Of a DNA stretch of 64,000 nt, positions 40,281 to 52,694 are shown piece by piece. Source of the DNA: a virus; the IMG/VR virus record IMGVR_UViG_3300025889_000083, positions 32,001 to 96,000 of that record; one strand, 5' to 3'. Position 1 is the stretch's first letter, and each line of letters begins with the position of its first letter. The notes beneath the pieces were generated by a model that saw only the letters and a program-made list of their open reading frames with translations, did no database searches and had not been told where the DNA came from. The translations under genes and the position numbers were made by a program.

Positions 40281-40502
40281 CTAGTGCAGTGTCTCAGAGT
40301 GTTCGTCATCTAATTCAAATATGTCCTTATCTATTGTGAAATTATGTAAGTAAAGAAACGCAGCAGATACTTTTAAAAAGAGTTCTTCAACTTCAGTAAG
40401 CTTTCTTACTTTTGTTATTTTCTCTAATTTAGTAGCAAGATCTGCGGCATGCAGAAATTGCTCATCTAACCATAATTTTCTTGTATCTGCTACTGTTTGC
40501 AT
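40281..40502 (-). CDS. Hypothetical protein
   Basis: Abuts terL start. Confidence 0.6.
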   Translation of the reverse strand: MQTVADTRKLWLDEQFLHAADLATKLEKITKVRKLTEVEELFLKVSAAFLYLHNFTIDKDIFELDDEHSETLH

Positions 40503-40846
40503 TAGCGTTTCCTACGTTTAATTCCTCGAACATATTTTTGGGATTTAGGTGGTGCTTTCTTTTTACCACCTTTACCCGCCCATAAAAATTTATTAGCCCA
40601 GTATGCGGGGGAAGCTTTTCCTCTAGCAATATTCTTACGATGTCTTGCTTTAAAAGACTTTCTAGCTTCTGGGCTATAGTTGTGACCCATCCCCTGTGCC
40701 CCAAATCTTATGACTTTTAATTTACCGTTTACCTTTGTGGCTACGACGGCTTTTTTTGTCTTGTGACTTGGAGTCATTTTTGGCTTGTTTAAGCCTTTCA
40801 GACCTGCTCTTCTCAGTCTTGCTTTTTCGCTTATTGTTAGTGCCAT
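40502..40846 (-). CDS. Small highly basic protein
   Basis: VIRFGAQGM...SFKARH...SPAYWA..LW. Confidence 0.75.
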   Translation of the reverse strand: MALTISEKARLRRAGLKGLNKPKMTPSHKTKKAVVATKVNGKLKVIRFGAQGMGHNYSPEARKSFKARHRKNIARGKASPAYWANKFLWAGKGGKKKAPPKSQKYVRGIKRRKR

Positions 40847-40918
40847 TTAAAATACTATTTACGACTTTATTAAGTCGTCCTGATTTCATTAATTCATGAA
40901 AATCTTTATGTATAATGT

Positions 40919-41209
40919 TTATCTACGTCTCCTGTTAGGTCTTTTTACAAGCACTTTGGAGTGAGCAGTTCTTCCACCTGTAAAAGACGGAGTTCTGGGA
41001 GATAAAGTTTTCCCATATCTTGGTCCGATCGCGCTGGGTCTTGCGCTATATCGAGCCGCTTCAACACCATATGGATTTTTGGTGTTAACTAGAGTTCCAG
41101 CTGCTGCATTCATCTCTCTTGTGATTCCGATTTTAAGCACATGCTTACGAATCTTCTGAGTGTTATGTACACCAGTTGGTCCTGATAAAAATGATCCTGT
41201 TCTTGCCAT
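40919..41209 (-). CDS. Small basic protein
   Basis: GGAG RBS; Arg-rich tail. Confidence 0.7.
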   Translation of the reverse strand: MARTGSFLSGPTGVHNTQKIRKHVLKIGITREMNAAAGTLVNTKNPYGVEAARYSARPSAIGPRYGKTLSPRTPSFTGGRTAHSKVLVKRPNRRRR

Positions 41210-41211
41210 TT

Positions 41212-41397
41212 TTAGCTCCTTGTCAGCCTATTCAGCTGTCTTGACCTCTCTGGGTCAGTTAATTGTGTGATTTCTTTAACTTGTTTCATCTTTTCTAATC
41301 TTGCTCTTTGAGACATGATTAGTAATCCCACAGCTCTTTCGATGCCGTGTAATCGTGGTGGTATAGTTAGTTTTTCCGCTAGTGTAAGTCCTTTCAT
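41212..41397 (-). CDS. Hypothetical protein
   Basis: AGGAGG RBS; 61 aa. Confidence 0.65.
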   Translation of the reverse strand: MKGLTLAEKLTIPPRLHGIERAVGLLIMSQRARLEKMKQVKEITQLTDPERSRQLNRLTRS

Positions 41398-41411
41398 GAC
41401 TCCTCCTTGTT

Positions 41412-41690
41412 TTAGCGTTTCTTTCTTCCTCTTCTTGCCTTTGTGCGGACATATGTAGGTCTGCCACCGATGCCTTGAGGTTTGGCTCGTTTTCTTCTAA
41501 CGGCGGAACGCTTCTCTGCAGCACTCATTTTTGATGCTACTCTTACTGGGACGCATTTGGGATACCCCGCACGCTTTGTCCTTGCTTTTGGTCTACCACA
41601 TGGTTGATATTTGCCTTTCTTTTTAGGTCGGCTTATATCCACCCATTTTTCTTTAAACCATTTAGTAAGTCCGCCTTGAGGTTTAGCCAT
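41412..41690 (-). CDS. Small highly basic protein
   Basis: GGLTKWFKEKWVD...CGR...YPKCVP. Confidence 0.75.
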   Translation of the reverse strand: MAKPQGGLTKWFKEKWVDISRPKKKGKYQPCGRPKARTKRAGYPKCVPVRVASKMSAAEKRSAVRRKRAKPQGIGGRPTYVRTKARRGRKKR

Positions 41691-41922
41691 CTCCTTCTAG
41701 TCCATTCGACAAGTAATTTGCCGCTGAGACTACTTCGTACTCTGAGATTGCTAATTTATTTGTCCACCATGTTGGTAAGGACTGTTCTGGATCTACGTTG
41801 TCAAGAATCATTTGACAGTGTGACATAATTGTTTTACATGCATTAATTGCTGATGCTCCATCAGTATGTCCATCTTTCTCGACTACTCTAAACTTGCCAT
41901 CTTTTGTTAGAACTGCTTTCAT
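41683..41922 (-). CDS. Hypothetical protein
   Basis: DGHTD...LPTWWTNKLA. Confidence 0.7.
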   Translation of the reverse strand: MKAVLTKDGKFRVVEKDGHTDGASAINACKTIMSHCQMILDNVDPEQSLPTWWTNKLAISEYEVVSAANYLSNGLEGDG

Positions 41923-42104
41923 TTTCGCTTCCTTGTTCCCATGCGGTATCTACCGCCTCTAGCTTTGTATGTTTTAACTAACCATCCGTTTGCATATGCA
42001 CTCGGATATACCTTAAACTTTCTTTTTGCTTCCGCTTTTACCCTAGCATAAAGTGCTGGGTTTGTTGGCACTGGTCTTTTCTTTGCTACTCTTTTACGCG
42101 CCAT
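41919..42104 (-). CDS. Small highly basic protein
   Basis: PTNPALYARVKAEAKRKFKVYPSAYA..LVKTYK..GG; ATG at 42104. Confidence 0.75.
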   Translation of the reverse strand: MARKRVAKKRPVPTNPALYARVKAEAKRKFKVYPSAYANGWLVKTYKARGGRYRMGTRKRK

Positions 42105-42105
42105 T

Positions 42106-42861
42106 TTAGTTATTATTAAGCAGTACAATATCAAATGTTGATGATATATTTGTACCTGTTGAAGCAATTGCTCTAACTTCAATATCTGTTTTTTCAGGTA
42201 AGTTAAATGGTACTTGATATATTCTTTGATGAAGTCCGCCTGGAACATCCATAACGTCTCTTGTTCTAAAAATTAAACCATTGCCTATTTCTCTTGTATA
42301 TAAGCTAGCGGTTATGGCGTCATTATAAGCACCTACTCCTATATTCCAATTTGTTAAATAACCTGTTTTTCCAGCAGGTATTGTATAGAATGACAAATTT
42401 GTTTGTCCTTGACCATATACTGTACCTGTACCAATTGTTGCAATTGTTGCCAATACTGTACCAGCACCACTTGCACCTGTTGATATTACCACAGTGCCTT
42501 TATTAGTTTGTAATGAACCTGCTGAAGCAACAAAGGCTCTATAAACTCTTAAAAATGATTTAGTTGAAACTGCACCATCTACTGTAAGTGTTTCTTGAAT
42601 TTCATTATAGTTGGCATCTAATCCTTGGACTGTAACGGTACGAGCACCTGTTCCAGATGCACTATCTTGTGCATCAGCTCCAGACACATAAACTGTTGAG
42701 GCAACTGTCAAGTAAGTATAAATGCCACCTTGTTCCCATATTGTTTCTGGAGCACCACCTACATTTGGATTTCTACCAAACTTATGTATAGACGAAGCTT
42801 TATTTATATTGCCTCTTGCAATATTAAAATAAGACTCATTTAAAAAACTATTTCTTGCCAC
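42106..42861 (-). CDS. Putative virion-associated beta-rich protein
   Basis: HKFG.N, GTGARTV.VQGLDANY, YTIPAGKTGY, LPEKTDI. Confidence 0.7.
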   Translation of the reverse strand: MARNSFLNESYFNIARGNINKASSIHKFGRNPNVGGAPETIWEQGGIYTYLTVASTVYVSGADAQDSASGTGARTVTVQGLDANYNEIQETLTVDGAVSTKSFLRVYRAFVASAGSLQTNKGTVVISTGASGAGTVLATIATIGTGTVYGQGQTNLSFYTIPAGKTGYLTNWNIGVGAYNDAITASLYTREIGNGLIFRTRDVMDVPGGLHQRIYQVPFNLPEKTDIEVRAIASTGTNISSTFDIVLLNNN

Positions 42862-43027
42862 GTTTCTTTCCTTTTGGTTTCTTGGTATTTAACTCATACC
42901 CACCTTCTACCGCATATAAAAGCCGTACCATTGCTTTAGCACGGCTTTTACTTTTAGCAGTCGCCTTCTTAGTTAGTTTCTTCCCATTTTTCTTGTAAAC
43001 AGTGTTTCCTCTAACTACGTATGGCAT
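42848..43027 (-). CDS. 59-aa basic protein (not in ORF track)
   Basis: MPYVVRGNTVYKKNGKK...PKGKKRGKK; abuts upstream stop. Confidence 0.65.
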   Translation of the reverse strand: MPYVVRGNTVYKKNGKKLTKKATAKSKSRAKAMVRLLYAVEGGYELNTKKPKGKKRGKK

Positions 43028-43204
43028 TTACTTATCCTTAGCTTTCCACACATTAAGTGCGCACCAGTCCATAAGCATGTATACTTTTTTCATAAGTCCA
43101 TCATCAACTGGTGTTGGTGTTACAGCTGCGATAAATGAACAGACAGTTACTATTGTCGGGACTACAGCAATAAATGCTCCAATCCATTCGAATAATGCTA
43201 ACAT
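43028..43204 (-). CDS. 58-aa membrane protein, holin-like
   Basis: Hydrophobic N-half, TPTPVDD motif, GGAG RBS. Confidence 0.6.
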   Translation of the reverse strand: MLALFEWIGAFIAVVPTIVTVCSFIAAVTPTPVDDGLMKKVYMLMDWCALNVWKAKDK

Positions 43205-43245
43205 ATCATTCTCCCCTAATTGCCACCTTAACGGCGACTCCTTTG

Positions 43246-43710
43246 TTACGATGTATAATCGTAAGCATGAACTCCATCTTCCAAAGGTTCGTGTGAATAA
43301 ATTGCATATTTATACATATTAGTCAACATTGGAAAAGGAGGTTTATATAGTCTAGTTAATCTAACTACACTATTATTATCTCTTGTTAAAGAGTAAACTT
43401 TTTTGGTTTCAAGATCTACACAAATAAGTGCAGCAAATTTACCATTTGTATTTTCAAACTGCTCACACTGAGCGTAGTTTGTACAGAAAACTACATAAAC
43501 ATCTTTATAATCAAATGAATATGAGTCTACTGTCCATGTTTCAGTAGCAAAATCTACTGTTAGTGTTCCTATTTTAGCAAAACAATTTATTGCTTTTTTT
43601 CTATCGGCAGGTAATGCTGGAGCAGTATTTCTCCATCTGCGTTTTGTATGAGTTCCATCAACATGTATTTTTTGATGGACTTCTTTTGCTATTGAATTAA
43701 TTGTTCTCAT
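43246..43710 (-). CDS. Hypothetical protein
   Basis: 154-aa ORF, ATGA-coupled. Confidence 0.6.
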   Translation of the reverse strand: MRTINSIAKEVHQKIHVDGTHTKRRWRNTAPALPADRKKAINCFAKIGTLTVDFATETWTVDSYSFDYKDVYVVFCTNYAQCEQFENTNGKFAALICVDLETKKVYSLTRDNNSVVRLTRLYKPPFPMLTNMYKYAIYSHEPLEDGVHAYDYTS

Positions 43711-43790
43711 TTAGGTCCGTATCTTTTAGTAGTACCTTTTCGTACTTCTTTCTTCTTGAACAAATTTTTAATCCATTGTATCAGTTTCAT
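43707..43790 (-). CDS. 27-aa basic amphipathic peptide
   Basis: AGGAG RBS; MKLIQWIKNLFKKKEVRKGTTKRYGPK. Confidence 0.5.
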   Translation of the reverse strand: MKLIQWIKNLFKKKEVRKGTTKRYGPK

Positions 43791-43885
43791 ATTTCTCCTA
43801 AAAGGCGGGGGCGGAACGACCCGAATTATATTCCGTGTTATGAATTCAATCATACTCTTTTGCTTAGTGTAAGGTCAGTCGCCCC

Positions 43886-44416
43886 CTAAAAATTGGTCAC
43901 CTCCTCGTAATCCCAGTCAATCATTAGATGAACTCGGTCAGTTGTACCATTATTCTGAGTTCCATGTAGCATGCCATGATTACATATTTCCCACATTTCT
44001 CCAACTTTCATATTTTGAGTTTCTTTTCCAACTCTAAAAATACAATCATCATTTGTTATAATTGGAATATGTATTCTACTTGAATTACTAAAGAAGTCTA
44101 ATTTATCTACATGCAGATCAATTTGTTTGCCTGCTGGTAATTTAGTCAATACACAGGTAAATATTTTTCCTGCTCCCAGTTTCTCGTTAAGAATTGCTGA
44201 AAGCTTTTCTAACTCTGGTTTGAATAAATTATAACTAGGATGTTCTTTTCTTTCTTCTAGTTTTATATCCCAAATTAATGGAATTGTGTATGTATCTTGC
44301 ATACCGAAACGTTTTTCTTGTCTCTCAGTATACTGGTGCCAGTCTAAATAGCTTACCGCTCTTAGAAAGAAACTTATATCAAAGTCTCCCCAATATTTAA
44401 ACGGTGCGCTAATCAT
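43886..44416 (-). CDS. Aspartyl/asparaginyl beta-hydroxylase family Fe(II)/2OG oxygenase
   Basis: LHVD, RIHIPIITN, H...N.GTTDRVHLMID. Confidence 0.85.
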   Translation of the reverse strand: MISAPFKYWGDFDISFFLRAVSYLDWHQYTERQEKRFGMQDTYTIPLIWDIKLEERKEHPSYNLFKPELEKLSAILNEKLGAGKIFTCVLTKLPAGKQIDLHVDKLDFFSNSSRIHIPIITNDDCIFRVGKETQNMKVGEMWEICNHGMLHGTQNNGTTDRVHLMIDWDYEEVTNF

Positions 44417-44419
44417 TAC

Positions 44420-44479
44420 TTAATAAGAACGTTTTTTCTTGCCTTTCTTTTTCTTACCCATTGATGAGTGTTTTGGCAT
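44420..44479 (-). CDS. 19-aa poly-Lys peptide
   Basis: GGAGG RBS; MPKHSSMGKKKKGKKKRSY. Confidence 0.55.
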   Translation of the reverse strand: MPKHSSMGKKKKGKKKRSY

Positions 44480-44494
44480 ATTCGTTTCCTCCTA

Positions 44495-44656
44495 CTAAGT
44501 CCAACGAGGCGGCTCGTCTGGACACTCTGCCCATCTTACTTTTGTTTTTAGGGGCATAAAGCAATTGCATATTTTGCAAGTCTTCCAGAACTTTCTGTAG
44601 TGTGGGCACTTTTGACAAATCGCTAGGCGTTTATCATGCGGTAATTTCTTCTTCAA
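44495..44656 (-). CDS. 53-aa Cys-rich protein
   Basis: GAGG RBS + TTG; RLAICQKCP...CKICNCFM..K.....ECP...RW. Confidence 0.65.
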   Translation of the reverse strand: MKKKLPHDKRLAICQKCPHYRKFWKTCKICNCFMPLKTKVRWAECPDEPPRWT

Positions 44657-45146
44657 ATTTTACCTCTAGTATTTTGTTTCCTTTCAACTGGTATAGTATA
44701 TCTAACCACCATCTTCTATCTCTTTGAAGTGTGTGAAAGTTTGTGCCATCTTTAAAATGTTTACGAGCAGGTTTAGTATCTATTCGAAAGAAAACTCCTT
44801 TTCTAGCATAACTAAAAATCTCTCGTATTGTTTGTATTGCAGTTGATGGATGAAGATGCTCCAATACATCTACTGCGATTACAATGTCAAATTTTCCTTT
44901 CGGTTTGACATTGTACTTATCGTACCCAGGATCATATAAATATACTTTTGTTCCCCAGTACTCGTGACATTGATGGTCCCTGTATTGCCATCCTTTGCCA
45001 CATCCGTAATCTAGTAAAGTCTCCGCTGAAAGTAAGTCTACTAAGTGCTTAATCTCATCTTTGACTTTGAGTGTAGCGTTTCCGCCCATGCAACCTCTCT
45101 CGCTATGGGCGACTCTGTACGCTTCCAGAAGTTCTTCTGGTGTCAT
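44634..45146 (-). CDS. Class I SAM-dependent methyltransferase
   Basis: LLDYGCGKG, YDPG, FDIVIAVDVLEHL. Confidence 0.88.
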   Translation of the reverse strand: MTPEELLEAYRVAHSERGCMGGNATLKVKDEIKHLVDLLSAETLLDYGCGKGWQYRDHQCHEYWGTKVYLYDPGYDKYNVKPKGKFDIVIAVDVLEHLHPSTAIQTIREIFSYARKGVFFRIDTKPARKHFKDGTNFHTLQRDRRWWLDILYQLKGNKILEVKFEEEITA

Positions 45147-45373
45147 CTTAAACTACTAGGTAGTTTAGATCTATGTTTTCTTTGAAGGTTTTTCTTACGA
45201 GCAAGTAATAATTTCTCTCTTGGAGAAATTTCTTTGCTTTCTTCGTGTCCTTCACCTTCGACAACTTCGCCGACTTGAACTTTGCTTGCGGCAGCTTTTA
45301 AAGCTTCTTCTATCTTATTTGCCACTAAATTCTTTCGCCTCTTTTTCAGTTGTAAATATCTCATGACCACCAT
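45143..45373 (-). CDS. Hypothetical protein (start may be the GTG nearer 45324)
   Basis: ORF in operon. Confidence 0.55.
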   Translation of the reverse strand: MVVMRYLQLKKRRKNLVANKIEEALKAAASKVQVGEVVEGEGHEESKEISPREKLLLARKKNLQRKHRSKLPSSLR

Positions 45374-45500
45374 TCCATTTGACGTGCCAGAGACCTCTTT
45401 TTAAGTATAGTTCGTAACCATCTTTGATTACCCATACTGGTTTTACTGCTTTAGTTTTTGGGCTTGCAGTAATTTCTTTTTTCTCGTACTCTAATTCCAT
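45315..45500 (-). CDS. Hypothetical protein
   Basis: ORF in operon. Confidence 0.6.
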   Translation of the reverse strand: MELEYEKKEITASPKTKAVKPVWVIKDGYELYLKRGLWHVKWNGGHEIFTTEKEAKEFSGK

Positions 45501-45502
45501 AA

Positions 45503-45697
45503 TTACCCTATTGTTATAATTGTCCAGACAGCAAGAGCGCCTGCACTAATGATACCACCAGCTGCAGCAATAAGAATATTTTGAATCTTATTTATTTCTG
45601 CATCTATATCGTCAAAACGATTAAAAGCCGTGTGCCATCTTTCGGCACAGACTGCTTCATGCTTCTCTAAATCTGATGCTACTTTTTCAACGCTCAT
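45503..45697 (-). CDS. Coiled coil plus C-terminal TM protein
   Basis: HEAVCAERW...C-terminal hydrophobic helix. Confidence 0.65.
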   Translation of the reverse strand: MSVEKVASDLEKHEAVCAERWHTAFNRFDDIDAEINKIQNILIAAAGGIISAGALAVWTIITIG

Positions 45698-45733
45698 TTC
45701 TGTTTCCCTGAACTTTTGTATAAATACTATCAA

Positions 45734-45762
45734 ATTATATCAAAAATGAACTTCAAAGTCAA
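45734..45762 (-). promoter_or_regulatory. Sigma70-type late promoter
   Basis: TTGACT-N17-TATAAT. Confidence 0.8.
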
Positions 45763-45765
45763 GTA

Positions 45766-47544
45766 TTATTTTCGGATGGTATAGATTTTGATGGGTTCTG
45801 TTTTGCCTTTAACAATAACCTCGTCTAAATATTCGTAATCGTAACCATCCACTAAACTATACTCAGAGATAATGACTCCGACATCATATTCTTTGCATAA
45901 ACTTTCTAGACGAGCAGCCAAATTAACGGCGTCCCCAAGGACAGAATAATCAAAGCGAGAGGAAGAACCGAAGTTGCCCACCACGCAAGTCCCTGTGTTG
46001 ATTCCTCCACCTGTGTTAATTTGATCAAGTCCTTCTTGCTCAAGTTGTTCATTTAACTCCTTTAGAGATTGTTTCATCTCAATAACTGCTTTTGTTGCGT
46101 TTTCTACTTGGTTATCATCATCGAGAGGTGCACCCCAAAACGCCATGATGCAGTCTCCCATGTATTTGTCTATTGTTCCGCCATGCTTCATAATGATCTT
46201 AGTCTGATTGTCTAAAAATCGATTTATGAGAGTAGTAAGTCCTTGCGGATTCTTCTGGTATTTTTCAGAGATCGGTGTAAATCCCCTGATATCGCTGAAA
46301 AGAAAAGTTAGTTGTTTCGTGACGCCACCCAATTGCAGTAATGATGGGTCTTCCTGTAATTTTTTCACCAACTCGGGACTCACATACGTCCCAAACTGTC
46401 GTTTAATCTGTTGTTTCTGTAAATATGTAGTAAAGAAACTACGGAAACTTTCAATCGCCCAGAATAAAAACCAGATCAAAATAAGACCACTTGTGGACAA
46501 TAAATAAGATGATTCTAAGGCATAAAACATTCCATAGATGGAACCTGCAATAAGTGTTACTAGGACAGGAATACTAAAATAAATACTACTAACAGCAAAC
46601 CCCAAAATAAGTAGTCCAATAATTCCTGCCACGATTGTTGCACCGCCACTCCAAGTAGGCGTAGAAAGTGCTGTGCCTTGTATAAGATTGTGTAAAGTGT
46701 TTGCTTGTATTTCATGTGGATATTTAGGTCCTGCGGGAGTTGGTACTGGATTATTAACTCCTTCTGCGGTTACTCCAAAGATAACGAATGGTGCAGCTAT
46801 TGGATTTGCCAAAAACTCTGCTGCAGACTGGCGATAGAACTTAGTGTTCCAATCCAAAAAGATGCGACCATTCGCATCTGTAATCATATTTGGATAGTTG
46901 GGTACTCTAACCCAAGATATGCCTTCTTGTGTTGTTTTTAACTGGTACGAAGGATCTCCTACGGCGACTCTTAAGAGTTCCAGAGCGAAACTCGGATACA
47001 GTTTTGACTGCACGTTTACTACGAGAGGCATACGCCGTGTTACTCCGTCTATCTCTGGTGATGCTGTTACTAGCCCGAGACCTGCCGCGTTTGCCGCTAG
47101 ATTTGACTCGGTACGTAAAATTCCTGGGAATTGATATAGCCATGGTGTTGGGTCTTCTCCTAATTGAGCTGTTCCCACATGTAGAGAAAGCTCCTCTGAC
47201 TGTGTAGAAGCTGCTGAGGCTATAACCGTTGGGGTCTGCATCATATTAGTTGCAAGTACATAGTCATTTCTGAAATCTCGAATATCGGGATCTGGCATAA
47301 GAACGCTGATCCCAGCAACATTTGATCTAGCAACTAGATCTGCATAAAGTGTTCTTGGAAGTGGGTAACCACCATAAGCTTCTACTATTTCTTCATCTAA
47401 GTCTACGATCAGTATATTTTCGTTTTGGACAGGATCTCTTGACATTACAAGATAGTCCCAAGTTTTGAGTTCTAATAATTTGAATGGAAGTGGATTCCAT
47501 ATAAAGAGTGCTCCAAGAGCAAGTGCGATTCCGAATCTTACCAT
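45766..47544 (-). CDS. CHASE2-domain class III adenylate cyclase
   Basis: N-terminal TM, IVDLDE/DGVTRRMPL CHASE2, three TMs, FSDIRGFT, DKYMGDCIM, GDAVNLAARLE. Confidence 0.93.
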   Translation of the reverse strand: MVRFGIALALGALFIWNPLPFKLLELKTWDYLVMSRDPVQNENILIVDLDEEIVEAYGGYPLPRTLYADLVARSNVAGISVLMPDPDIRDFRNDYVLATNMMQTPTVIASAASTQSEELSLHVGTAQLGEDPTPWLYQFPGILRTESNLAANAAGLGLVTASPEIDGVTRRMPLVVNVQSKLYPSFALELLRVAVGDPSYQLKTTQEGISWVRVPNYPNMITDANGRIFLDWNTKFYRQSAAEFLANPIAAPFVIFGVTAEGVNNPVPTPAGPKYPHEIQANTLHNLIQGTALSTPTWSGGATIVAGIIGLLILGFAVSSIYFSIPVLVTLIAGSIYGMFYALESSYLLSTSGLILIWFLFWAIESFRSFFTTYLQKQQIKRQFGTYVSPELVKKLQEDPSLLQLGGVTKQLTFLFSDIRGFTPISEKYQKNPQGLTTLINRFLDNQTKIIMKHGGTIDKYMGDCIMAFWGAPLDDDNQVENATKAVIEMKQSLKELNEQLEQEGLDQINTGGGINTGTCVVGNFGSSSRFDYSVLGDAVNLAARLESLCKEYDVGVIISEYSLVDGYDYEYLDEVIVKGKTEPIKIYTIRK

Positions 47545-47903
47545 GATATATTAAAATGTACTCCCATGCTTTCGTGATTTATTACCACGCCCCACTGAAC
47601 TATATTTGCTGCAATCAGTCCGTATTTTCGATTGTCTCTACTATCATTAAATTTGTAGAGTACATATGATCCTAATATTTTTTGTGCGAGTATTCGGTCT
47701 GGATGTGGACGATTTGAAAATAATGGATTACTTTCCATATATTTTCCATTTTTGAAAGCATCTTTTGATTGTTCGTAGTCTATCCAGCTTCCTATATTGT
47801 AAGCATAGTATAAGTTTCGTTCTGTTTGTGTCCAATCATTCAGACTGCCGTAAGATAATAGAGGAACCGCCGCTATTAACCACAATATTAATGTCTTTGC
47901 CAT
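47538..47903 (-). CDS. Exported/membrane hypothetical protein
   Basis: Signal peptide MAKTLILWL; ESNPL motif; ends FNISW. Confidence 0.65.
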   Translation of the reverse strand: MAKTLILWLIAAVPLLSYGSLNDWTQTERNLYYAYNIGSWIDYEQSKDAFKNGKYMESNPLFSNRPHPDRILAQKILGSYVLYKFNDSRDNRKYGLIAANIVQWGVVINHESMGVHFNISW

Positions 47904-48924
47904 CTTGTGATAATATGATATTATATCCTTGAGAGGCATCTAAGTTTACATAAATTGTATCACTTATACTTCTCGTCATTTTTAGTCTTCCAGAGTCTAC
48001 TAAAGTAATTATTTGAGTCTCTGCATCTTGTCCTATTTCTGTTCCTGTAATTTGTAATGAGCCATCAGAGTCAAGTTCTTTTCCTCCTTCTTTTAGCTCG
48101 TCTACTGCTTCAATGATATCTAGTAAGTCTTCGAGAAAGTTTACATCTAATAAATCTACATCTATCTCACTAAACTCTAAGTCTTCTTCAAAGAAGTCTT
48201 CTGCAAGTAGATCTACCTCTAAATCATTAAAGTCTAAAAAATCTGCTCGGGCTGTCTTTTCTTCTTCAACAAGTTCTTCCTCTTTTGGAGGACTTACAAT
48301 TAACATATTGTCAATCGCATCTAAAGTTAAGTCTAATATTACATTGCTACTGGGAGCTTTCTCCCACATGCTTGCGACTGTGCTTTCAAATGGTTTATTG
48401 AGTACAGTAGTTCCTGCCGCCGTTGCTACCGTGATTTCACCGCTAGATATACCATTGACATCAGGAAGAAGAATAACCAGACTACGCCCCAACTCATCAA
48501 CAGTAACAGTGAAGTCAGTTCCACGAATACCGATTTGAGCAGTTGGAGTGGATATACTAATATTCTCCTTATTAATCGCACCTATTTTCCCTGTGATAAA
48601 TCGTGCAGTTCCTGAAGCAAATTGTAAGCCAATTTTTGACTTGCTTGGATTTGGGTCAAAGACCACTTCATCAAGTATAAGCTTACTATGCTCAGTGAGA
48701 CGCACAACACTATCGTCACTAAAAGTAATACCGAGGCGAGTATTAGCAGTTCGAACGTCATCATAACTATTTACTCCTATATTAACAGAAACGGGCAATT
48801 GCTCGCCCGTTCTATTTATTTCTGCATGATTACCGTTTAATTCAGTTACGCTACCAATACCATCAGCATGAAGTGACAGTACCAGCATCATTTTGATAAA
48901 TACAAATATTCGCATTTGATCCAC
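47836..48924 (-). CDS. FecR-domain protein with acidic linker (start probably ~48891)
   Basis: DDVRTA, FSDDSVVRLTEHS, TPTAQIGIRGTDF. Confidence 0.88.
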   Translation of the reverse strand: MDQMRIFVFIKMMLVLSLHADGIGSVTELNGNHAEINRTGEQLPVSVNIGVNSYDDVRTANTRLGITFSDDSVVRLTEHSKLILDEVVFDPNPSKSKIGLQFASGTARFITGKIGAINKENISISTPTAQIGIRGTDFTVTVDELGRSLVILLPDVNGISSGEITVATAAGTTVLNKPFESTVASMWEKAPSSNVILDLTLDAIDNMLIVSPPKEEELVEEEKTARADFLDFNDLEVDLLAEDFFEEDLEFSEIDVDLLDVNFLEDLLDIIEAVDELKEGGKELDSDGSLQITGTEIGQDAETQIITLVDSGRLKMTRSISDTIYVNLDASQGYNIILSQDGKDINIVVNSGGSSIILRQSE

Positions 48925-49600
48925 TTGTTCCGCTAGTCGTTGAATTAATATTCAAGTAATCCTTTGCCAGTGTAGATTGCTGGTCTATAATAAAGTTTGT
49001 ATAATCACCTGTATGATCTAGATAAAACTCATGTCCTGCATAGTTATCTGCATCGTAGTCCAGAGTATTATAATCTCCAGTTATGTCAATATCAAAGATT
49101 GCATTATCTACATCTATATTTGAAGTGATTGTATTATAATCACCGCTTATAACAGCATCGTAGTCAACACCAGTTGCTGCTGCAGCTGTTGCTATTCTTA
49201 CTGTCATGTCATTTCCACTTCCAGTAATATCTACATCTATGTTAAGATTATCGCCGCCATAAGTTCCAGTTGCATCTACATCAATATCAAAGATATTGCT
49301 ATCTCCTGTAAATGTAAAGTTTCCTGCAACTGTATCAGCTACGATATCTCCTATAAAATCGTTGCCATCTCCAATCTGATTTATATCAATCGTTTGACTG
49401 TTTCCTGTCAAATTAAATGTGCTAATTGGATCATTTCCACTTGCTGTTTCGTTTCCTTTTACTTGGTTTCCACTTCCAATCTGGTCTATCTCTATTTGAG
49501 CATTACTCCCAGATTGTGTTATGTAGATTTCATTATCCGCTGCATATGCACTTATAGTAAAAAGTACTATTAAACTAAGATTTACCCCCACTAGTTTCAT
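48863..49600 (-). CDS. Curlin-like beta-solenoid repeat protein
   Basis: Signal peptide; NEIYITQSG, IDQIGSGN, INQIGDGN, then xIxGxxN repeats. Confidence 0.75.
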   Translation of the reverse strand: MKLVGVNLSLIVLFTISAYAADNEIYITQSGSNAQIEIDQIGSGNQVKGNETASGNDPISTFNLTGNSQTIDINQIGDGNDFIGDIVADTVAGNFTFTGDSNIFDIDVDATGTYGGDNLNIDVDITGSGNDMTVRIATAAAATGVDYDAVISGDYNTITSNIDVDNAIFDIDITGDYNTLDYDADNYAGHEFYLDHTGDYTNFIIDQQSTLAKDYLNINSTTSGTSGSNANICIYQNDAGTVTSC

Positions 49601-50441
49601 TTTGCTCTCCCAAGCTGGCTACTGACCAGTAGCCTCTTCTATTTCCTTCTAAAATAGTTTCATATACTCCTGTCTCAATTGCTTTCTGAAGTGCAATAGT
49701 AACGCTTTCGTTCTTTGTCACTCCATTCTCAACTTCGACAAGTTCTGTTCCCATCTCAATAAATCGAAAAACATCTTGATTTACTGCGACACTGAGAATC
49801 GTTTTTGTTATAAGCACTTCCATGAGAATCTCTCCAGTGCTTACACTTACTGTTCTTAATGATACCGTCACGGTATCTTCTCGATATTGCTTACTTGCTC
49901 CAATACCTAAATATCTTGCTCCTGTTCCTCCTGACTTTAAATTGGTATCATAACCAATTACGCCACCTTCCATAATAAGTCCTGCGAAAAGCAGGGGAAG
50001 CATGTCTTCGGATTCTCGTAGCGAATCTCGTGTGGAGCGAATGAGCTGTCTCTCTTTTGTAAGATGATCGAGTCCAACTCGTTCAACAACTCGAAAGAAA
50101 CTTCCTTGCCCTGCATGCTTGAGTGCTCGTACGAGTAAAGCGTCAGGTGACATGGTGACTGCAGTGCTGAACAACGCGAACTGGCTATTACTTTTTCGTT
50201 GTCCTGTGAGGTCACTAAAGCTATATACAGCAACAGTTGGGATATTATTAGAAGTCCGAGTAATATTCCACAGATTTTCATTTGTAATCTGTCGGACTTC
50301 AGCAATCTCCATTTTACTAAAATAACCTGTGTTATTTTCGAGAAGACTCTTAACATCATATCCCCCAAAACAACTACTAAGGCATAAAGTCGCCAAAGGA
50401 ACCAATCGGAATTGTAATCTCTGTAACTTGTCCATCTGCAT
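49575..50441 (-). CDS. csgG: Curli secretion pore lipoprotein CsgG-like (true start uncertain)
   Basis: LSSC lipobox; VAVYSFSDLTGQRK, FRVVERVGLDHLTKERQLIR, GARYLGIG. Confidence 0.92.
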   Translation of the reverse strand: MQMDKLQRLQFRLVPLATLCLSSCFGGYDVKSLLENNTGYFSKMEIAEVRQITNENLWNITRTSNNIPTVAVYSFSDLTGQRKSNSQFALFSTAVTMSPDALLVRALKHAGQGSFFRVVERVGLDHLTKERQLIRSTRDSLRESEDMLPLLFAGLIMEGGVIGYDTNLKSGGTGARYLGIGASKQYREDTVTVSLRTVSVSTGEILMEVLITKTILSVAVNQDVFRFIEMGTELVEVENGVTKNESVTIALQKAIETGVYETILEGNRRGYWSVASLGEQNETSGGKS

Positions 50442-50880
50442 CTGTAATTCTTAGAGTAATTGTTGTACCATCACTGGAATACTCAATTGTGTTTCCTTCA
50501 ATAACAACTGTACCGTAGGCTTCAAGTCCTTGTCCGTTAGATCCAAAGAGTTGATCGACGAGATCTCGTGATAACTGAGAATAAACTCTACTCTCGAAGT
50601 TCTTGAGAAATCGTGCGAGAGTTGATGACTCTGCGTCTCGTTTTGCTTGTTCAATTGCTGCTTCTAAATCGTCTTTAATTTTATTTTTTCGAGTGTTTTC
50701 TTGATTTTCGATTGTCAAGTAATGTGCCGATGTTCCGATCCCAGAGAAACTGGGATTGTTGAACTTGTGCACCATTTCGTCGGTATAACCTTTCACCGCA
50801 AAAAATATTGCTCCACCAATACATACTAAACCAATCGTAATACTAAGGAATCTTTTTCGTAGCGGAGTCTTTCTTCTCAT
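50377..50880 (-). CDS. csgF: CsgF-like curli assembly protein
   Basis: HKFNNPSFSG; C-terminal ITDADG..TEITIP; adjacent to csgG. Confidence 0.85.
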   Translation of the reverse strand: MRRKTPLRKRFLSITIGLVCIGGAIFFAVKGYTDEMVHKFNNPSFSGIGTSAHYLTIENQENTRKNKIKDDLEAAIEQAKRDAESSTLARFLKNFESRVYSQLSRDLVDQLFGSNGQGLEAYGTVVIEGNTIEYSSDGTTITLRITDADGQVTEITIPIGSFGDFMP

Positions 50881-51109
50881 TTTCTTTCATCTGTAGAATT
50901 GTATCTACCTTTTGCTGTAGTCTTATTAGATCATTGTCGAGCATACGAACTTGGTCGATTAACTTAATAAGTGCAAAGTGCATTTCTTCAACAGCAGGTT
51001 CCACCACATCATTAAGGTTTGTCCACATATAGTAAACAAAATAACCAAGTCCAACCATCGCAATGATTGGAAAACCAAAGTCTTGTATCAGTTGTCCTAT
51101 GTCTTCCAT
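50843..51109 (-). CDS. TM plus coiled-coil protein
   Basis: FGFPIIA TM; LDNDLIRL. Confidence 0.75.
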   Translation of the reverse strand: MEDIGQLIQDFGFPIIAMVGLGYFVYYMWTNLNDVVEPAVEEMHFALIKLIDQVRMLDNDLIRLQQKVDTILQMKENEKKDSATKKIP

Positions 51110-51483
51110 GAAGCTAGTGCCTTTTTGATACTTTCTTCTGCTAAGACTGAGCAGTGTAATTTTATACTTGGAAGTTCAAGAGCAGCAGCTATATCTCTAT
51201 CTTTTATCTTAAGAGCCTCTTCTACTGTCTTTCCAACAAGCATGTCTACAAAAAGACTGCTTGAAGCGATTGCACTTCCACAACCATATGTTTTAAACTT
51301 TACATCTTGTATTATGTTATCTTCAATCTTAAGTTGAAGTTTCATTACGTCTCCACAAGCTGGAGCTCCTACCATTCCAGTAGCAACTCTCGGATCGCTG
51401 GGATCAAATCTACCAACGGAAAATTTTTCGGGATTACTAAGTACTCCTTCAAATCTTTCTACTACTTGTCTGCTATATGCCAT
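51097..51483 (-). CDS. iscU: Fe-S cluster scaffold IscU
   Basis: MAYS..V, GAPACGDVM, FKTYGCGSA, KLHCSVLAE. Confidence 0.95.
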   Translation of the reverse strand: MAYSRQVVERFEGVLSNPEKFSVGRFDPSDPRVATGMVGAPACGDVMKLQLKIEDNIIQDVKFKTYGCGSAIASSSLFVDMLVGKTVEEALKIKDRDIAAALELPSIKLHCSVLAEESIKKALASWKT

Positions 51484-51779
51484 TAATCTCTTCTCACGTC
51501 TAAAGTGCCAGCTTCAATAAAATTCTCTGCTCTGGCAATTCTATTTAGATCTGGCACAAGTCCAAGAGCAGCACTTACAGTTGTGTCTAATCTTATCATG
51601 TCATTATTGATTGTTTTGACACGAGTAGTAAGTGAAGTACAAAACATTTTAAGAGTTCCAATACTAGAAGCAACTCCTTCCATCTTCTGTTTCATAACAA
51701 GAAAGATGAAGTATCCCATAACAAGTGCGCCTGCTATCGGTGCTCCAACTTCTGCTATAAGATTAAGTACTTCTTCCAT
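51483..51779 (-). CDS. TM plus coiled-coil protein (paralogue of 50843..51109)
   Basis: VGAPIAG TM; INNDMIRL. Confidence 0.75.
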   Translation of the reverse strand: MEEVLNLIAEVGAPIAGALVMGYFIFLVMKQKMEGVASSIGTLKMFCTSLTTRVKTINNDMIRLDTTVSAALGLVPDLNRIARAENFIEAGTLDVRRD

Positions 51780-52074
51780 TTATAAATGACTCTCCACAGC
51801 CACAGCGGGTGTAAGGCAAGTCAAAAGTAAGTTTTTCATTTAAGTCACTTTCAAGTCCGATCTCAACTGGCTCTAACATCTCCCAGTCTGAAAAAGGAAT
51901 ATGGATTGAGAAAAATCCAAAGTCCACCATATATGTTCCCCCAACTTCTGAGGTTTCTATAAATTCGATACTATTACCGCTGCAACCACGACGAGCAGAC
52001 CTAAGTAGTATTCTCGCTGGTTTCTTTGCAATGCGCTCCGTAATAAATTGTATGGCTTCATTAGATATCTTCAC
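51763..52074 (-). CDS. IscA/HesB-family Fe-S carrier
   Basis: GCSG and CGCGESF. Confidence 0.85.
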   Translation of the reverse strand: MKISNEAIQFITERIAKKPARILLRSARRGCSGNSIEFIETSEVGGTYMVDFGFFSIHIPFSDWEMLEPVEIGLESDLNEKLTFDLPYTRCGCGESFINGRST

Positions 52075-52194
52075 CGTCCATGTATTTGCCCCAGAGGTAT
52101 TTAGCCCCTACGTATGCACCTCCTAAAATGCTTGCCCAGATAACTAGGCTAAATAAATATTTAAATAATGTGTATGGTAATAAAATAAATTCTA

Positions 52195-52659
52195 TCATGT
52201 TTTGTCCTGTAATAATCGTTCCATTAACTTGCCGTAATTTCCCTGACCGAATGGTAATTCTCCATTTATCTGCACATTCGTCTGGTTTTTAATATTAGAG
52301 GCTTTGGCTTTCTCAAGTTCTGCCATTGCCTTGATCTCATCCATGCGCATCTTGTGCGCTAGGCTTAGTAGATCTACGACATCCTTATTAGTGTAAACTT
52401 GACTTTCTTCTGCTTCTTCTAGTTTCTGTTCTATTATATCGTCAAGTTTATTTGCAATTTTAAATCTATTGCGATATCCTGTGTCCAGATAGACTTGATC
52501 GATATACTGGCGAACTTCTCTTTTATTGAGTAGATCTTGTACAGTATTTTCATCAAGTTTAAGTCGTAAACAAACTGACTGAACATTTCCCAGTTCTAAA
52601 TAACAGTTCGCTACTTCTAAGCCTTCTGGAGACATTCTTGTTGCGATTTCATTTTTCAT
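52195..52659 (-). CDS. terS: Terminase small subunit (T5-like)
   Basis: MSPEGL, GYRNR, KLEEAEE, AHKMRMDE, QTN. Confidence 0.85.
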   Translation of the reverse strand: MKNEIATRMSPEGLEVANCYLELGNVQSVCLRLKLDENTVQDLLNKREVRQYIDQVYLDTGYRNRFKIANKLDDIIEQKLEEAEESQVYTNKDVVDLLSLAHKMRMDEIKAMAELEKAKASNIKNQTNVQINGELPFGQGNYGKLMERLLQDKT

Positions 52660-52665
52660 ATTGGG

Positions 52666-52694
52666 AGTATACCATAGGTCGATCTAAAAGTCAA
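52666..52694 (-). promoter_or_regulatory. Promoter, probably giving a leaderless terS mRNA
   Basis: TTGACT-N17-TATACT, 6 nt before ATG. Confidence 0.75.

Follow-up and report, generated by a model that had tools for sequence, protein, structure and literature searches.

On the minus strand of a 64,000-nucleotide stretch of viral DNA (positions 32,001 to 96,000 of IMG/VR record IMGVR_UViG_3300025889_000083, hereafter the window), a co-oriented run of overlapping or abutting genes at 45766-51779 forms a module that we interpret, with a probability of about one half, as a secretion system combined with an outside-to-inside cAMP sensor, carried by what its genes indicate to be a T5-like siphophage. 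The module encodes two paralogous single-pass membrane proteins, CsgF, a CsgG lipoprotein, a solenoid with the CsgA fold, a secreted protein with the FecR/PupR fold, a small protein resembling DUF5658 and a CHASE2 class III cyclase. The block is already known: it is the published 'viral curli' (type VIII secretion, T8SS) region with FecR and adenylate cyclase of ocean phages. The novelty implied by the original prediction, which was made from the DNA letters alone, was therefore overstated, and what is new is the carrier type only, there being no report of a T5-like siphophage as carrier in the literature that we searched.

The original prediction noted csgF and csgG in some marine myophages, but the literature has the full block with FecR and cyclase, described for podo- and myo-pelagiphages by Wittmers et al. 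2022 (PMC9599517). Known carriers are HTVC023P-type podophages and pelagimyophages such as HTVC008M and Melnitz (PMC9599517; Zaragoza-Solas et al. 2020, PMC7029224; Buchholz et al. 2022, PMC9004378), and both HTVC008M, a Pelagibacter phage, and Melnitz, a Methylophilales phage, are annotated with the same ordered module. In both the pelagiphage region and the window, one or two small membrane proteins come first, then CsgF, CsgG, a curlin-like protein and FecR, and after a variable slot the cyclase; protein identities between HTVC008M and the window are 33-53%. They differ in that the window module resides in a T5-like siphophage, lies between terS and terL, has an IscU gene separating its TM-coil genes, and has a DUF5658-like protein in the slot rather than a second curlin.

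The carrier is a complete 104-kb marine phage record, and its assignment as T5-like, already made in the original prediction, agrees with a TerL (phrog_2) 49% identical to those of My1, phiR2-01 and Slocum, a terS of phrog_3802 and a tail of the lambda-J/tape-measure type. The module occupies a 12-kb accessory island with terS on one side and terL on the other. The terS gene (52195..52659, minus strand; phrog_3802, 1.9e-40) is the first of the tightly packed run that holds the module, and a promoter-like site upstream of it (TTGACT-17-TATACT with TG; 52666..52694, minus) is a candidate start for a transcript through the module; such sites are consensus matches only, and their count equals that in shuffled sequence. 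The module forms one translationally coupled run behind terS, and from this position and the consensus matches late-infection expression is probable. Nearly all of its proteins possess a signal peptide, a lipobox or a membrane helix, the interleaved IscU having none.

All seven genes named in the original prediction were recovered in one orientation (minus strand), each overlapping its neighbour or abutting it, with Pfam matches for CsgF, CsgG, FecR and the CHASE2 cyclase. The CsgF-like protein (50377..50880, minus) has a signal/anchor helix (Pfam CsgF, 3e-17; phrog_35372, 1.2e-41), and its N-terminal motif F-x-N-P-S-F-x-G is more than 90% conserved across 35 phage CsgFs. CsgG (49575..50441, minus; Pfam CsgG, 1.2e-50) is an outer-membrane lipoprotein channel with the lipobox L-S-S-C, the cysteine of which is conserved; it matches the E. 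coli CsgG structures 4uv2/6l7a at 1.6e-44, and relative to E. coli CsgG its constriction loop retains F56 and is altered at Y51 and N55. The secreted curlin-like protein (48863..49600, minus; 245 aa, with a signal peptide) falls under the Pfam Curlin_rpt cut-off of 20.7 bits (E 0.0067, 16.8 bits), and its alignment displays about nine strand-turn-strand repeats, with G-(D/S)-S-N and Q-x-G-x-x-N motifs, and two C-terminal cysteines. Its AF2 model (pLDDT 81, pTM 0.80) is a beta-solenoid, for which the best of 48,161 chains is Pontibacter CsgA 8c50 (Z 18.6, rmsd 8.8, 199 aligned, 21% identity); the following matches stand at Z 15.3 with 4-6% identity. The curlin call of the original prediction is accordingly rescued at the level of the modelled fold, which is that of CsgA. 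This is the fastest-evolving gene of the module, with a median identity of 38% among relatives.

These components also accommodate the published interpretation, in which CsgG/F export CsgA/B-like subunits that polymerise into functional curli fibres on the infected cell, for aggregation ('sibling capture') or as a physical barrier to superinfecting phages, with FecR and the cyclase having no more than a regulatory role. The original prediction had set this aside in favour of signalling, arguing from the missing csgE, csgC and csgD. The absence itself is borne out, as CsgE, CsgC, GerE/CsgD, cNMP-binding, STN and sigma-70 region 2 domains are all lacking from the whole 104-kb record, but the argument fails because alphaproteobacterial curli operons also lack csgE/C/D (PMC9599517) and the curlin-like protein has the CsgA fold. 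Fibres are further favoured by the repeats and signal peptide of that protein, by the conserved CsgF motif and CsgG lipobox, by the curlin-like genes that accompany alphaproteobacterial CsgF-CsgG, and by the case made in PMC9599517, including its report of expression of the phage region in metatranscriptomes. Against them, the window has a single curlin-like gene, and hence no obvious major-subunit/nucleator pair, and seven related loci have nothing in the slot where a second curlin may lie; the cyclase shares an overlapping run with its supposed targets in a phage without a cAMP-responsive regulator; Buchholz et al. 2022 (PMC9004378) saw no clumping in Melnitz-infected cultures; and it is left unexplained why FecR, in place of any known curli factor, should be universal in the phage module. 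On balance we hold the fibre interpretation to be possible and rather doubtful, though better placed than the other alternatives.

The original prediction had the module begin at 51109; the genes that it listed are real, but the run extends upstream to 51779, adding a second TM-coil protein and IscU. TM-coil A, the one first noticed (50843..51109, minus; 88 aa; phrog_18771, 8.5e-25), has a TM helix at residues 7-25 and a strongly conserved coiled-coil motif. Its paralog, TM-coil B (51483..51779, minus; 98 aa; phrog_18771, 8.9e-24), has an N-terminal TM helix (residues 4-22) ahead of its coiled coil, and has homologs ahead of CsgF in HTVC008M, Melnitz and myophage-type contigs. Small upstream genes were apparently called histidine kinases by Wittmers et al. 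2022 (PMC9599517); TM-coil B matched no Pfam family, and no kinase domain was found here by Pfam and domain searches. The IscU/NifU-like Fe-S scaffold gene (51097..51483, minus; NifU_N, 6.9e-37) lies between the TM-coil paralogs in this lineage, occurs in only some related contigs and is missing from this position in myophage modules; it probably plays no functional part in the module.

Extending a proposal of Buchholz et al. 2022 (PMC9004378), one might envisage a role in lysis timing, with a late-opened CsgG/F pore, perhaps together with the TM-coil pair as holin and antiholin, depolarising or permeabilising the envelope, and the CHASE2 cyclase and FecR providing the timing input. The location of the module in the late packaging operon, the retention of two paralogous small membrane proteins in all carriers, a match of TM-coil A to holin phrog_4898 (1.6e-4) and the synteny argument of those authors are in line with this. 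However, the holin match is weak and no function is assigned to phrog_18771, CsgG as an outer-membrane channel cannot by itself depolarise the inner membrane, Pfam and PHROG searches revealed neither endolysin nor spanin within the module, and a lysis pore has no need of a CsgA-fold cargo; we consider such a role unlikely.

The secreted FecR/PupR-fold protein (47836..48924, minus; 362 aa; Pfam FecR, 5.6e-12) is modelled as a beta domain (~23-190), a disordered acidic linker (~208-287) and a small C-terminal beta domain (290-360). The best fold match is the PupR cell-surface-signalling domain 6ovm (Z 16.7, rmsd 2.3, 138 aligned), the structure of which was solved in a complex; it is the N-terminal domain that matches this periplasmic signalling domain. 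A weaker match (Z 7.0, rmsd 2.0, 73/76 residues) is to the MpIBP anchoring domain 5ix9. In the retention modules of type I secreted adhesins, that domain is the template for the LapA retention plug, behind which a flexible segment threads through the pore. The folded N-domain and ensuing linker of ~80 disordered residues recall that arrangement, but the phage pore is CsgG and not TolC-like, and threading of the linker through it would be pure inference by analogy.

The FecR family name, together with the absence of the CsgE gate, might be taken to favour an import channel, suggested in PMC9599517, whereby iron chelates or other nutrients or cofactors would enter the infected cell through an ungated CsgG/F pore and FecR would act as it does in ferric-citrate signalling. 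Unlike FecR and PupR in their signalling systems, however, the phage protein has a signal peptide only, with neither a cytoplasmic anti-sigma part nor a membrane anchor, and the phage has no STN-domain transducer or ECF sigma factor. Moreover, the fold of the Pfam FecR domain serves protein binding in general and is present also on giant adhesin-like proteins, and import leaves the conserved solenoid cargo unexplained. This makes an import channel highly improbable.

Between FecR and the cyclase lies the slot, which is variously empty (seven related loci), filled by a DUF5658-like protein or filled by a second curlin. In the window it holds exp133, a small exported or membrane protein (47538..47939, minus), for which the Atlas entry begins at residue 18 and the true start is probably internal. 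The original prediction listed it as an exported protein; it is indeed present, but is better placed in a recurrent, weakly DUF5658-like family of 30 members across related contigs, 12 of 17 members matching DUF5658 (best E 1.4e-5) and the window protein itself unmatched. The family was not detected in the longer myophage-type contigs among those listed. Two points here count against a secretion system tied to a sensor: the variability of the slot in these sequences argues against a rigid machine, and the cyclase is reported to be missing from some phage curli regions (PMC9599517), so that the T8SS-FecR part is able to work in its absence.

The cyclase (45766..47544, minus; 592 aa; Pfam CHASE2, 3.8e-33, and Guanylate_cyc, 3.5e-21) has TM1, a periplasmic CHASE2 domain (~25-300), three TM helices (~301-375) and a cyclase domain (410-590) matching P. 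aeruginosa CyaB 3r5g at 1.7e-37. The catalytic residues described in the original prediction are all retained: D418 and D464 for metal, K460 and S534 for substrate, and N541 and R545 for the transition state. It looks active, with cAMP as the predicted product. It is the best-conserved gene of the module, its cyclase domain having a median identity among relatives of 81%, versus 83% for TerL. In phylogenetic analysis the phage copies (25 from siphophages and 26 from myophages) are separated with support 1.0 from the 78 bacterial cyclases closest to them, pointing to one clade of single origin; the closest bacterial relatives are alphaproteobacterial and include rhizobia. We argue that the cyclase is the output and not an upstream regulator, because it closes the overlapping run that contains the T8SS genes, because neither a cNMP-binding nor a CsgD-type protein is encoded by the phage, and because its catalytic domain is conserved as much as TerL.

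The original prediction of conservation as a unit was likewise upheld. Gene order is kept in 80 IMG/VR loci of the same lineage, and CsgF, CsgG, curlin and FecR are all upstream of the cyclase in 23/23 related contigs with more than 6.5 kb of sequence upstream of that gene; myophage-type contigs keep the order TMcoilB-TMcoilA-CsgF-CsgG-curlin-FecR-curlin-AC. In bacteria, none of 80 loci around the closest cyclases has CsgG, CsgF, curlin or TM-coil genes, and CsgG was undetectable, with the query used, in five genomes with close cyclases. Conversely, the seven loci around the closest alphaproteobacterial CsgF-CsgG resemble the phage in an adjacent CsgF, a CsgG 41-50% identical and curlin-like genes nearby (4/7), but FecR, the CHASE2 cyclase and TM-coil genes are all absent from the 10 kb around them. 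Among the sampled genomes, only phages unite the curli trio with the FecR/CHASE2 pair. The latter pair does occur in bacteria: of 51 cyclase loci flanked on each side by 5 kb or more, 25 have a FecR-domain ORF, directly adjacent in 10. Several of these neighbours are 1200-2100 aa long; a scan of three such giants identified cadherin-like and Ig domains as well in two, and RTX repeats in one of the two. Published cases linking FecR with CHASE2 (PMC5192318, PMC5498481) are a Burkholderia LysM/FecR protein adjoining a CHASE2 kinase and the S. meliloti FecR-domain protein SMc02177 described below.

Under the secretion-and-sensor interpretation, the infected cell would build a CsgG/CsgF channel in its outer membrane, through which the CsgA-fold solenoid would be exported to the surface; the periplasmic FecR/PupR-fold protein would couple the periplasmic CHASE2 domain to the condition of the pore or fibre, or to something that it binds itself, and the cyclase would then set cytoplasmic cAMP synthesis. 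Every contact between the parts, the way in which the signal passes, its nature and the target of cAMP are what we infer here; the gene content, the intact domains and catalytic residues, the strict conservation as a unit, the joining of the two halves only in phages among the genomes sampled and the bacterial FecR-CHASE2 adjacency are observed. A precedent exists in Sinorhizobium meliloti, where the outer-membrane beta-barrel NsrA was shown experimentally to be needed to activate the CHASE2 cyclases CyaD1, CyaD2 and CyaK for cAMP production (PMC7529298, PMC13001267), and where the cAMP regulator Clr, acting in the pathway of CyaD1, targets the periplasmic protein SMc02177, which has a FecR domain. 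The two systems differ in their outer-membrane partner, which in S. meliloti is no CsgG channel, and in that the phage encodes no Clr/CRP-type receptor. The trans-envelope cAMP chain of the original prediction is partly supported by this precedent, by the unit conservation, the intact cyclase and the bacterial adjacency, and we retain it shorn of its opposition to fibres; the roles that it offered for the chain, namely superinfection sensing, lysis timing or CRP reprogramming, are conjectural.

Downstream of the cyclase, a second promoter-like site from the consensus scan (45762-45734) precedes the gene for TM76 (45503..45733, minus), a small tail-anchored coiled-coil protein with a C-terminal TM helix at residues 55-73. 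Its membership in the module is uncertain; the gene lies downstream of the cyclase in 76 loci, directly so in nearly all related T5-like contigs.

The minus-strand run from 45766 to 51779 is composed of genes whose neighbouring starts and stops overlap or abut. It opens with the small membrane and coiled-coil protein TM-coil B (51483-51779; phrog_18771), which is followed by IscU (51097-51483; NifU_N), TM-coil A, a paralog of B (50843-51109; phrog_18771), CsgF (50377-50880; Pfam, 3e-17), CsgG (49575-50441; Pfam, 1.2e-50), a curlin-like repeat protein (48863-49600; Curlin_rpt at 16.8 bits, below the cut-off of 20.7), a FecR-domain protein (47836-48924; Pfam, 5.6e-12), a 133-residue protein assigned to no family (47538-47939) and a protein combining a CHASE2 domain with a class III cyclase domain (45766-47544; Pfam, 3.8e-33 and 3.5e-21). 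All products but IscU begin with a signal peptide, a lipobox or a membrane helix. The co-oriented, overlapping gene set of the original prediction was recovered in full. Like the canonical csgBAC-csgDEFG system of E. coli, the module possesses the CsgG channel and a CsgF with a conserved N-terminal segment. In contrast to it, CsgE, CsgC and CsgD are absent, as had been claimed: searches that recovered the E. coli controls found no match to them in the whole 104-kb record. There is also no separate CsgB nucleator, and the module in the window has a single curlin-like gene, whereas its relatives often carry a second curlin copy between the FecR and cyclase genes.

A region of exactly this kind was described in HTVC023P-type podophages and pelagimyophages by Wittmers et al. 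2022 (PMC9599517). These authors regarded FecR and the cyclase as foreign to bacterial curli operons, proposed an alphaproteobacterial origin with transfer between phage families, reported expression of the viral curli region in metatranscriptomes, and offered aggregation ('sibling capture'), a superinfection barrier or import as hypotheses for its role. Their paper mentions neither the CHASE2 domain nor a siphophage carrier of the T8SS region. As in their viral T8SS-FecR-cyclase module, the CsgF, CsgG and curlin-repeat genes of the window are adjacent and co-oriented on phage DNA, the FecR gene directly follows the curlin gene, and the cyclase lies downstream, in the same order as in HTVC008M and Melnitz. 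Among 50,697 GenBank phage records, protein searches met the trio of cyclase, FecR and CsgG in no phages but HTVC008M of Pelagibacter and the four Melnitz strains, and a DNA-level search of the GenBank phages returned only an 89-bp csgG stretch of HTVC008M. The annotated order in these phages is two small hypothetical genes, CsgF, CsgG, curlin, FecR, one more gene and the cyclase, the two small genes being homologous to TM-coil A and B. No T5-like carrier came up in the literature searched, and the system is a further copy of the published module, on a backbone not yet reported in papers. One additional CsgG match, 45% identical to that of the window, came from the unannotated 1499-bp record OR851715.1 (Salmonella phage S.Kent 1-2-1), which is probably a host csgG fragment rather than a phage gene.

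The record holding the window is 104,148 bp long and is rated complete in IMG/VR. Its TerL (38982-40280) shares 49% identity with the large terminases of My1, phiR2-01 and Slocum, all T5-like phages, its terS (52195-52659) belongs to phrog_3802 (1.9e-40), and its tail genes fall into the tape-measure, major-tail and J-fibre types; together these features identify the carrier as a T5-like siphophage, in agreement with the original prediction. In the cultured T5-like phages matched by TerL the annotations place terS and terL together or side by side, whereas here about 12 kb of co-oriented accessory genes separate them (40281-52194). This island includes an IscA-like gene, IscU, the curli-cyclase module, a methyltransferase (44634-45146) and many small ORFs, and the terS-terL junction looks like an insertion hotspot. 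No convincing terminator was found inside the module, and a promoter-like site lies upstream of terS, although matches to the consensus are no commoner than in shuffled sequence. We infer that the module is co-transcribed with terS, which would imply late expression. Directly after the cyclase stands a gene for a small tail-anchored coiled-coil protein, TM76 (45503-45733). A promoter-like site (TTGACT-17-TATAAT with a TG, 11/12) occupies 45734-45762, inside the 32 bases between the cyclase stop and this gene, and suggests that TM76 begins a separate transcript.

CsgG aligns over 212 residues with the E. coli CsgG structures (PDB: 4uv2; 1.6e-44) and has the lipobox L-S-S-C; in its constriction loop F56 is retained, while Y51 and N55 are substituted. 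The Pfam match of CsgF spans profile positions 9-132, although a phmmer search with this protein against the PDB gave nothing meaningful. Directly after its signal sequence CsgF bears the motif F-x-N-P-S-F-x-G, more than 90% conserved across 35 phage copies, which we take to be the segment that enters and binds the CsgG barrel in the E. coli CsgG-CsgF structures. Such a channel might serve import, one of the roles put forward for the viral region, a use that we regard as highly improbable.

The curlin-like protein consists of about nine strand-turn-strand units with the motifs Q-x-G-x-x-N and G-(D/S)-S-N. Its AlphaFold model (pLDDT 81, pTM 0.80) found as its best fold match among 48,161 chains the CsgA of Pontibacter korlensis (PDB: 8c50; Z 18.6, rmsd 8.8, 199 residues aligned, 21% identity), about 3 Z units above the generic beta-helices that follow (Z at most 15.3, 4-6% identity); Foldseek against the PDB gave only weak beta-helix matches and nothing at E <=0.001. 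With a CsgA-like fold next to a CsgG/CsgF pore, the production of fibres could be the main purpose of the module. Buchholz et al. 2022 (PMC9004378), however, saw no clumping in infected cultures, and we consider this explanation doubtful.

The same authors suggested instead a pore that times lysis. In the module of the window, TM-coil A has a weak match to a holin PHROG, and we hold a role in lysis timing to be quite unlikely. Paralogous proteins of about 90 residues with a membrane segment and a coiled coil (phrog_18771) lie upstream of CsgF in the siphophage and myophage modules alike, including one compared locus (L001, 1901-2460), and apparently in the podophage modules as well. The pair stands before CsgF where the 2022 paper (PMC9599517) places small genes called histidine kinases ('HK'), and these seem to be the same genes. 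Neither TM-coil protein has a Pfam family or a kinase domain, and we reject the histidine kinase reading because no Pfam kinase or HAMP domain was matched even at E 5 and because proteins of 88-98 residues are too short.

The cyclase begins with a single helix, which is followed by a CHASE2 domain of some 275 residues, a hydrophobic block (301-375) and the catalytic domain. The Pfam CHASE2 match covers residues 12-315 (3.8e-33), with hydrophobic segments at 6-24 and within 301-375. Counting this block as three transmembrane helices, the third assigned by eye, gives the layout of a CHASE2 receptor, namely a predicted extracytoplasmic domain with one helix before it and three after. The protein matches P. 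aeruginosa CyaB (PDB: 3r5g; K/T type; 1.7e-37). In alignments to this structure and to the phage relatives, the metal-binding D418 and D464, the adenine-specifying K460, S534 at the second specificity position, and the transition-state residues N541 and R545 are all retained, so that the original description of an intact catalytic site was accurate. By this residue set the protein is a class III adenylate cyclase with predicted catalysis and ATP specificity. The Melnitz cyclase (L002, 6932-8980) departs from this pattern in the alignment: serine replaces the transition-state asparagine, aspartate occupies the second specificity position, the motif near the second metal-binding aspartate is altered, and a C-terminal extension of about 70 residues is present. 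Its activity may therefore differ from that of other copies.

The module abounds in the ocean: scans of IMG/VR with the cyclases of the window and of HTVC008M each returned at least 600 matching stretches, and at E <=1e-10 the cyclase matches over 7,700 protein clusters. The best 80 of the at least 600 matches to the window cyclase are 48-76% identical to it and come from one phage lineage (TerL 77-88% identical). Where the DNA of these 80 allows, the order towards TerL is terS, (IscU), TM-coil B, TM-coil A, CsgF, CsgG, curlin, FecR, the variable gene slot between FecR and cyclase, cyclase and TM76. In 23 of these loci more than 6.5 kb lies upstream of the cyclase, and all 23 have CsgF, CsgG, curlin and FecR. 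Measured against the window, median identities rise from curlin (38%) through CsgF (51%), FecR (53%) and CsgG (56%) to the cyclase (67%). Within the cyclase they are 64% for CHASE2, 42% for the membrane helices and 81% for the catalytic domain, as against 83% for TerL. These values indicate that the enzyme is under strong constraint, the exported parts being the fastest evolving.

The slot itself is filled variably. The 133-residue protein of the window (47538-47939) belongs to a family of 30 small proteins from related contigs (L009-L079) with invariant D, E-x-N, P, K and N positions, and 12 of the 17 members tested show weak matches to Pfam DUF5658 (best E 1.4e-5). This family was seen in the T5-like lineage only, where the slot is empty in seven loci and elsewhere holds the DUF5658-like gene, a second curlin-like gene, or both. 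The HTVC008M-cyclase scan yielded 80 myophage-type loci among its at least 600 stretches; the longer ones listed keep the same gene order, mostly have a second curlin in the slot, and include none with a detectable DUF5658-like gene.

Taken together, we favour, with a probability of about 0.5, a combined secretion and sensing device whose output is the cyclase. CsgG and CsgF would form the pore, the CsgA-fold protein would be its cargo, and the FecR-fold protein would link pore or cargo to CHASE2, with the cyclase passing on the result. We place the cyclase at the output, rather than upstream as a regulator of the curli genes, because it closes the overlapping run that also carries them, because no other part of the module is as conserved as its catalytic domain, and because family searches of the whole phage record found no cNMP-binding, STN-domain, ECF sigma (Sigma70_r2) or CsgD/GerE protein. 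The signalling chain originally proposed stands in part: the conservation of the genes as a unit, the intact cyclase and the pairing of FecR with CHASE2 in bacteria support it. A rigid single machine is disfavoured by the variable slot and by the phage curli regions that lack the cyclase (Wittmers et al.). What probability remains falls to something else that we have not considered.

The structural model of the FecR protein (pLDDT 71) falls into three parts. The beta domain at 23-190 resembles the periplasmic cell-surface-signalling domain of PupR (PDB: 6ovm; Z 16.7, rmsd 2.3, 138 residues aligned); residues 208-287 are disordered and very acidic; and residues 290-360 form a small beta domain without a convincing match. 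A hidden curlin repeat in this last part was considered and rejected: profile-profile comparison of FecR and curlin gave a probability of 1.9%, and fold matches of residues 288-350 reached Z 3.3-3.7 at most, with FHA-like sandwiches. The protein shares with FecR-type anti-sigma factors the C-terminal signalling domain of the FecR/PupR kind, but differs from them in opening with a cleavable-type signal peptide and in having neither a cytoplasmic anti-sigma domain nor a membrane anchor; Sigma70_r2 and STN domains, the partners in such systems, are likewise missing from the whole phage.

The same beta domain also matches, more weakly, the anchoring domain of the ice-binding adhesin MpIBP (PDB: 5ix9; Z 7.0, rmsd 2.0, 73 of 76 residues), the template used for the LapA retention module, in which a plug sits in the periplasm and the flexible stretch after it runs through the secretion pore. 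The phage protein likewise has a folded N-terminal domain and then a long disordered linker, a suggestive analogy to LapA that carries no evidence of threading. One specific version of the device, which we rate as rather unlikely, would make the FecR protein a pore-threaded tether. Its PupR-fold domain would plug the periplasmic side of the CsgG/F channel and contact CHASE2, the acidic disordered linker of about 80 residues would traverse the channel, and the small C-terminal domain and the curlin solenoid would lie outside the cell. If so, the phage would equip the infected cell with a contact or mechanical sensor working from the outside in, by which events at the surface, such as the arrival of a second phage, a neighbouring cell or a particle, are turned into cAMP.

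In a maximum-likelihood tree of 25 siphophage, 26 myophage and 78 bacterial cyclases, the 51 phage sequences, that of the window among them, are separated from the bacterial ones by a branch with support 1.0, and the siphophage and myophage groups are each monophyletic. Such a split is consistent with the module having been assembled once and then passed between phage families. The module has been seen on three tailed-phage backbones that are unrelated to one another, which speaks for a strong and portable advantage in infection. The closest 80 bacterial cyclases are 30-38% identical over their full length and are mostly alphaproteobacterial (Bradyrhizobium, Rhodospirillales, marine MAGs), with SAR86 and a few other phyla. 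Within 10 kb of these 80 cyclases there is no CsgG, CsgF, curlin-like or TM-coil gene, and CsgG was not detectable with the phage query in five genomes with the closest cyclases. Conversely, a CsgG 41-50% identical to the phage protein occurs in 7 of 401 sampled alphaproteobacterial genomes, with CsgF beside it in all seven and curlin-like genes nearby in four, and FecR or cyclase within 10 kb in none. In phages the genes are conserved as a unit, in all 23 loci with enough DNA upstream. The curli set and the FecR-cyclase set were found only apart in the sampled bacteria, which makes the module a chimera, joined from two bacterial units and seen as a whole only in phages among the sampled genomes.

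The FecR-CHASE2 half has bacterial counterparts of its own. At least 5 kb is available on both flanks of the cyclase in 51 bacterial loci; 25 of these have a FecR-domain ORF, within 5 kb in 21 and directly adjacent in 10. Several of the adjacent FecR proteins are 1200-2100 residues long, with the FecR domain near the N-terminus, and others are short periplasmic FecR proteins. Giants directly upstream of CHASE2 cyclases are found in Bradyrhizobium and other Alphaproteobacteria (L087, 5326-9879; L132, 3500-9796; L125, 6233-9907). Cadherin-like and Ig domains were detected in two of these three giants, with RTX calcium-binding repeats in one of those two, a composition that suggests type I secreted adhesins. 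Together with the cyclases they may constitute an undescribed adhesin-coupled cAMP sensor in bacteria, and, were the tether arrangement true, they would represent the same principle in an ancestral form, fused and secreted by the type I route. The restriction of the curli pore-FecR/CHASE2 union to phages among the sampled genomes, and these giant adhesin-like counterparts, replace a vague 'viral curli' annotation with a concrete hypothesis that is testable in E. coli. Related pairings are on record: a Burkholderia operon that regulates biofilm encodes a LysM/FecR protein beside a CHASE2 histidine kinase (PMC5192318), and in S. meliloti the FecR-domain protein SMc02177 is a target of the cAMP regulator Clr, in the pathway of the CHASE2 cyclases CyaD1/D2/K (PMC5498481). 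The closest experimental precedent for a route from the outer membrane through CHASE2 to cAMP is the S. meliloti NsrA-CyaD1/D2/K pathway (PMC7529298, PMC13001267).
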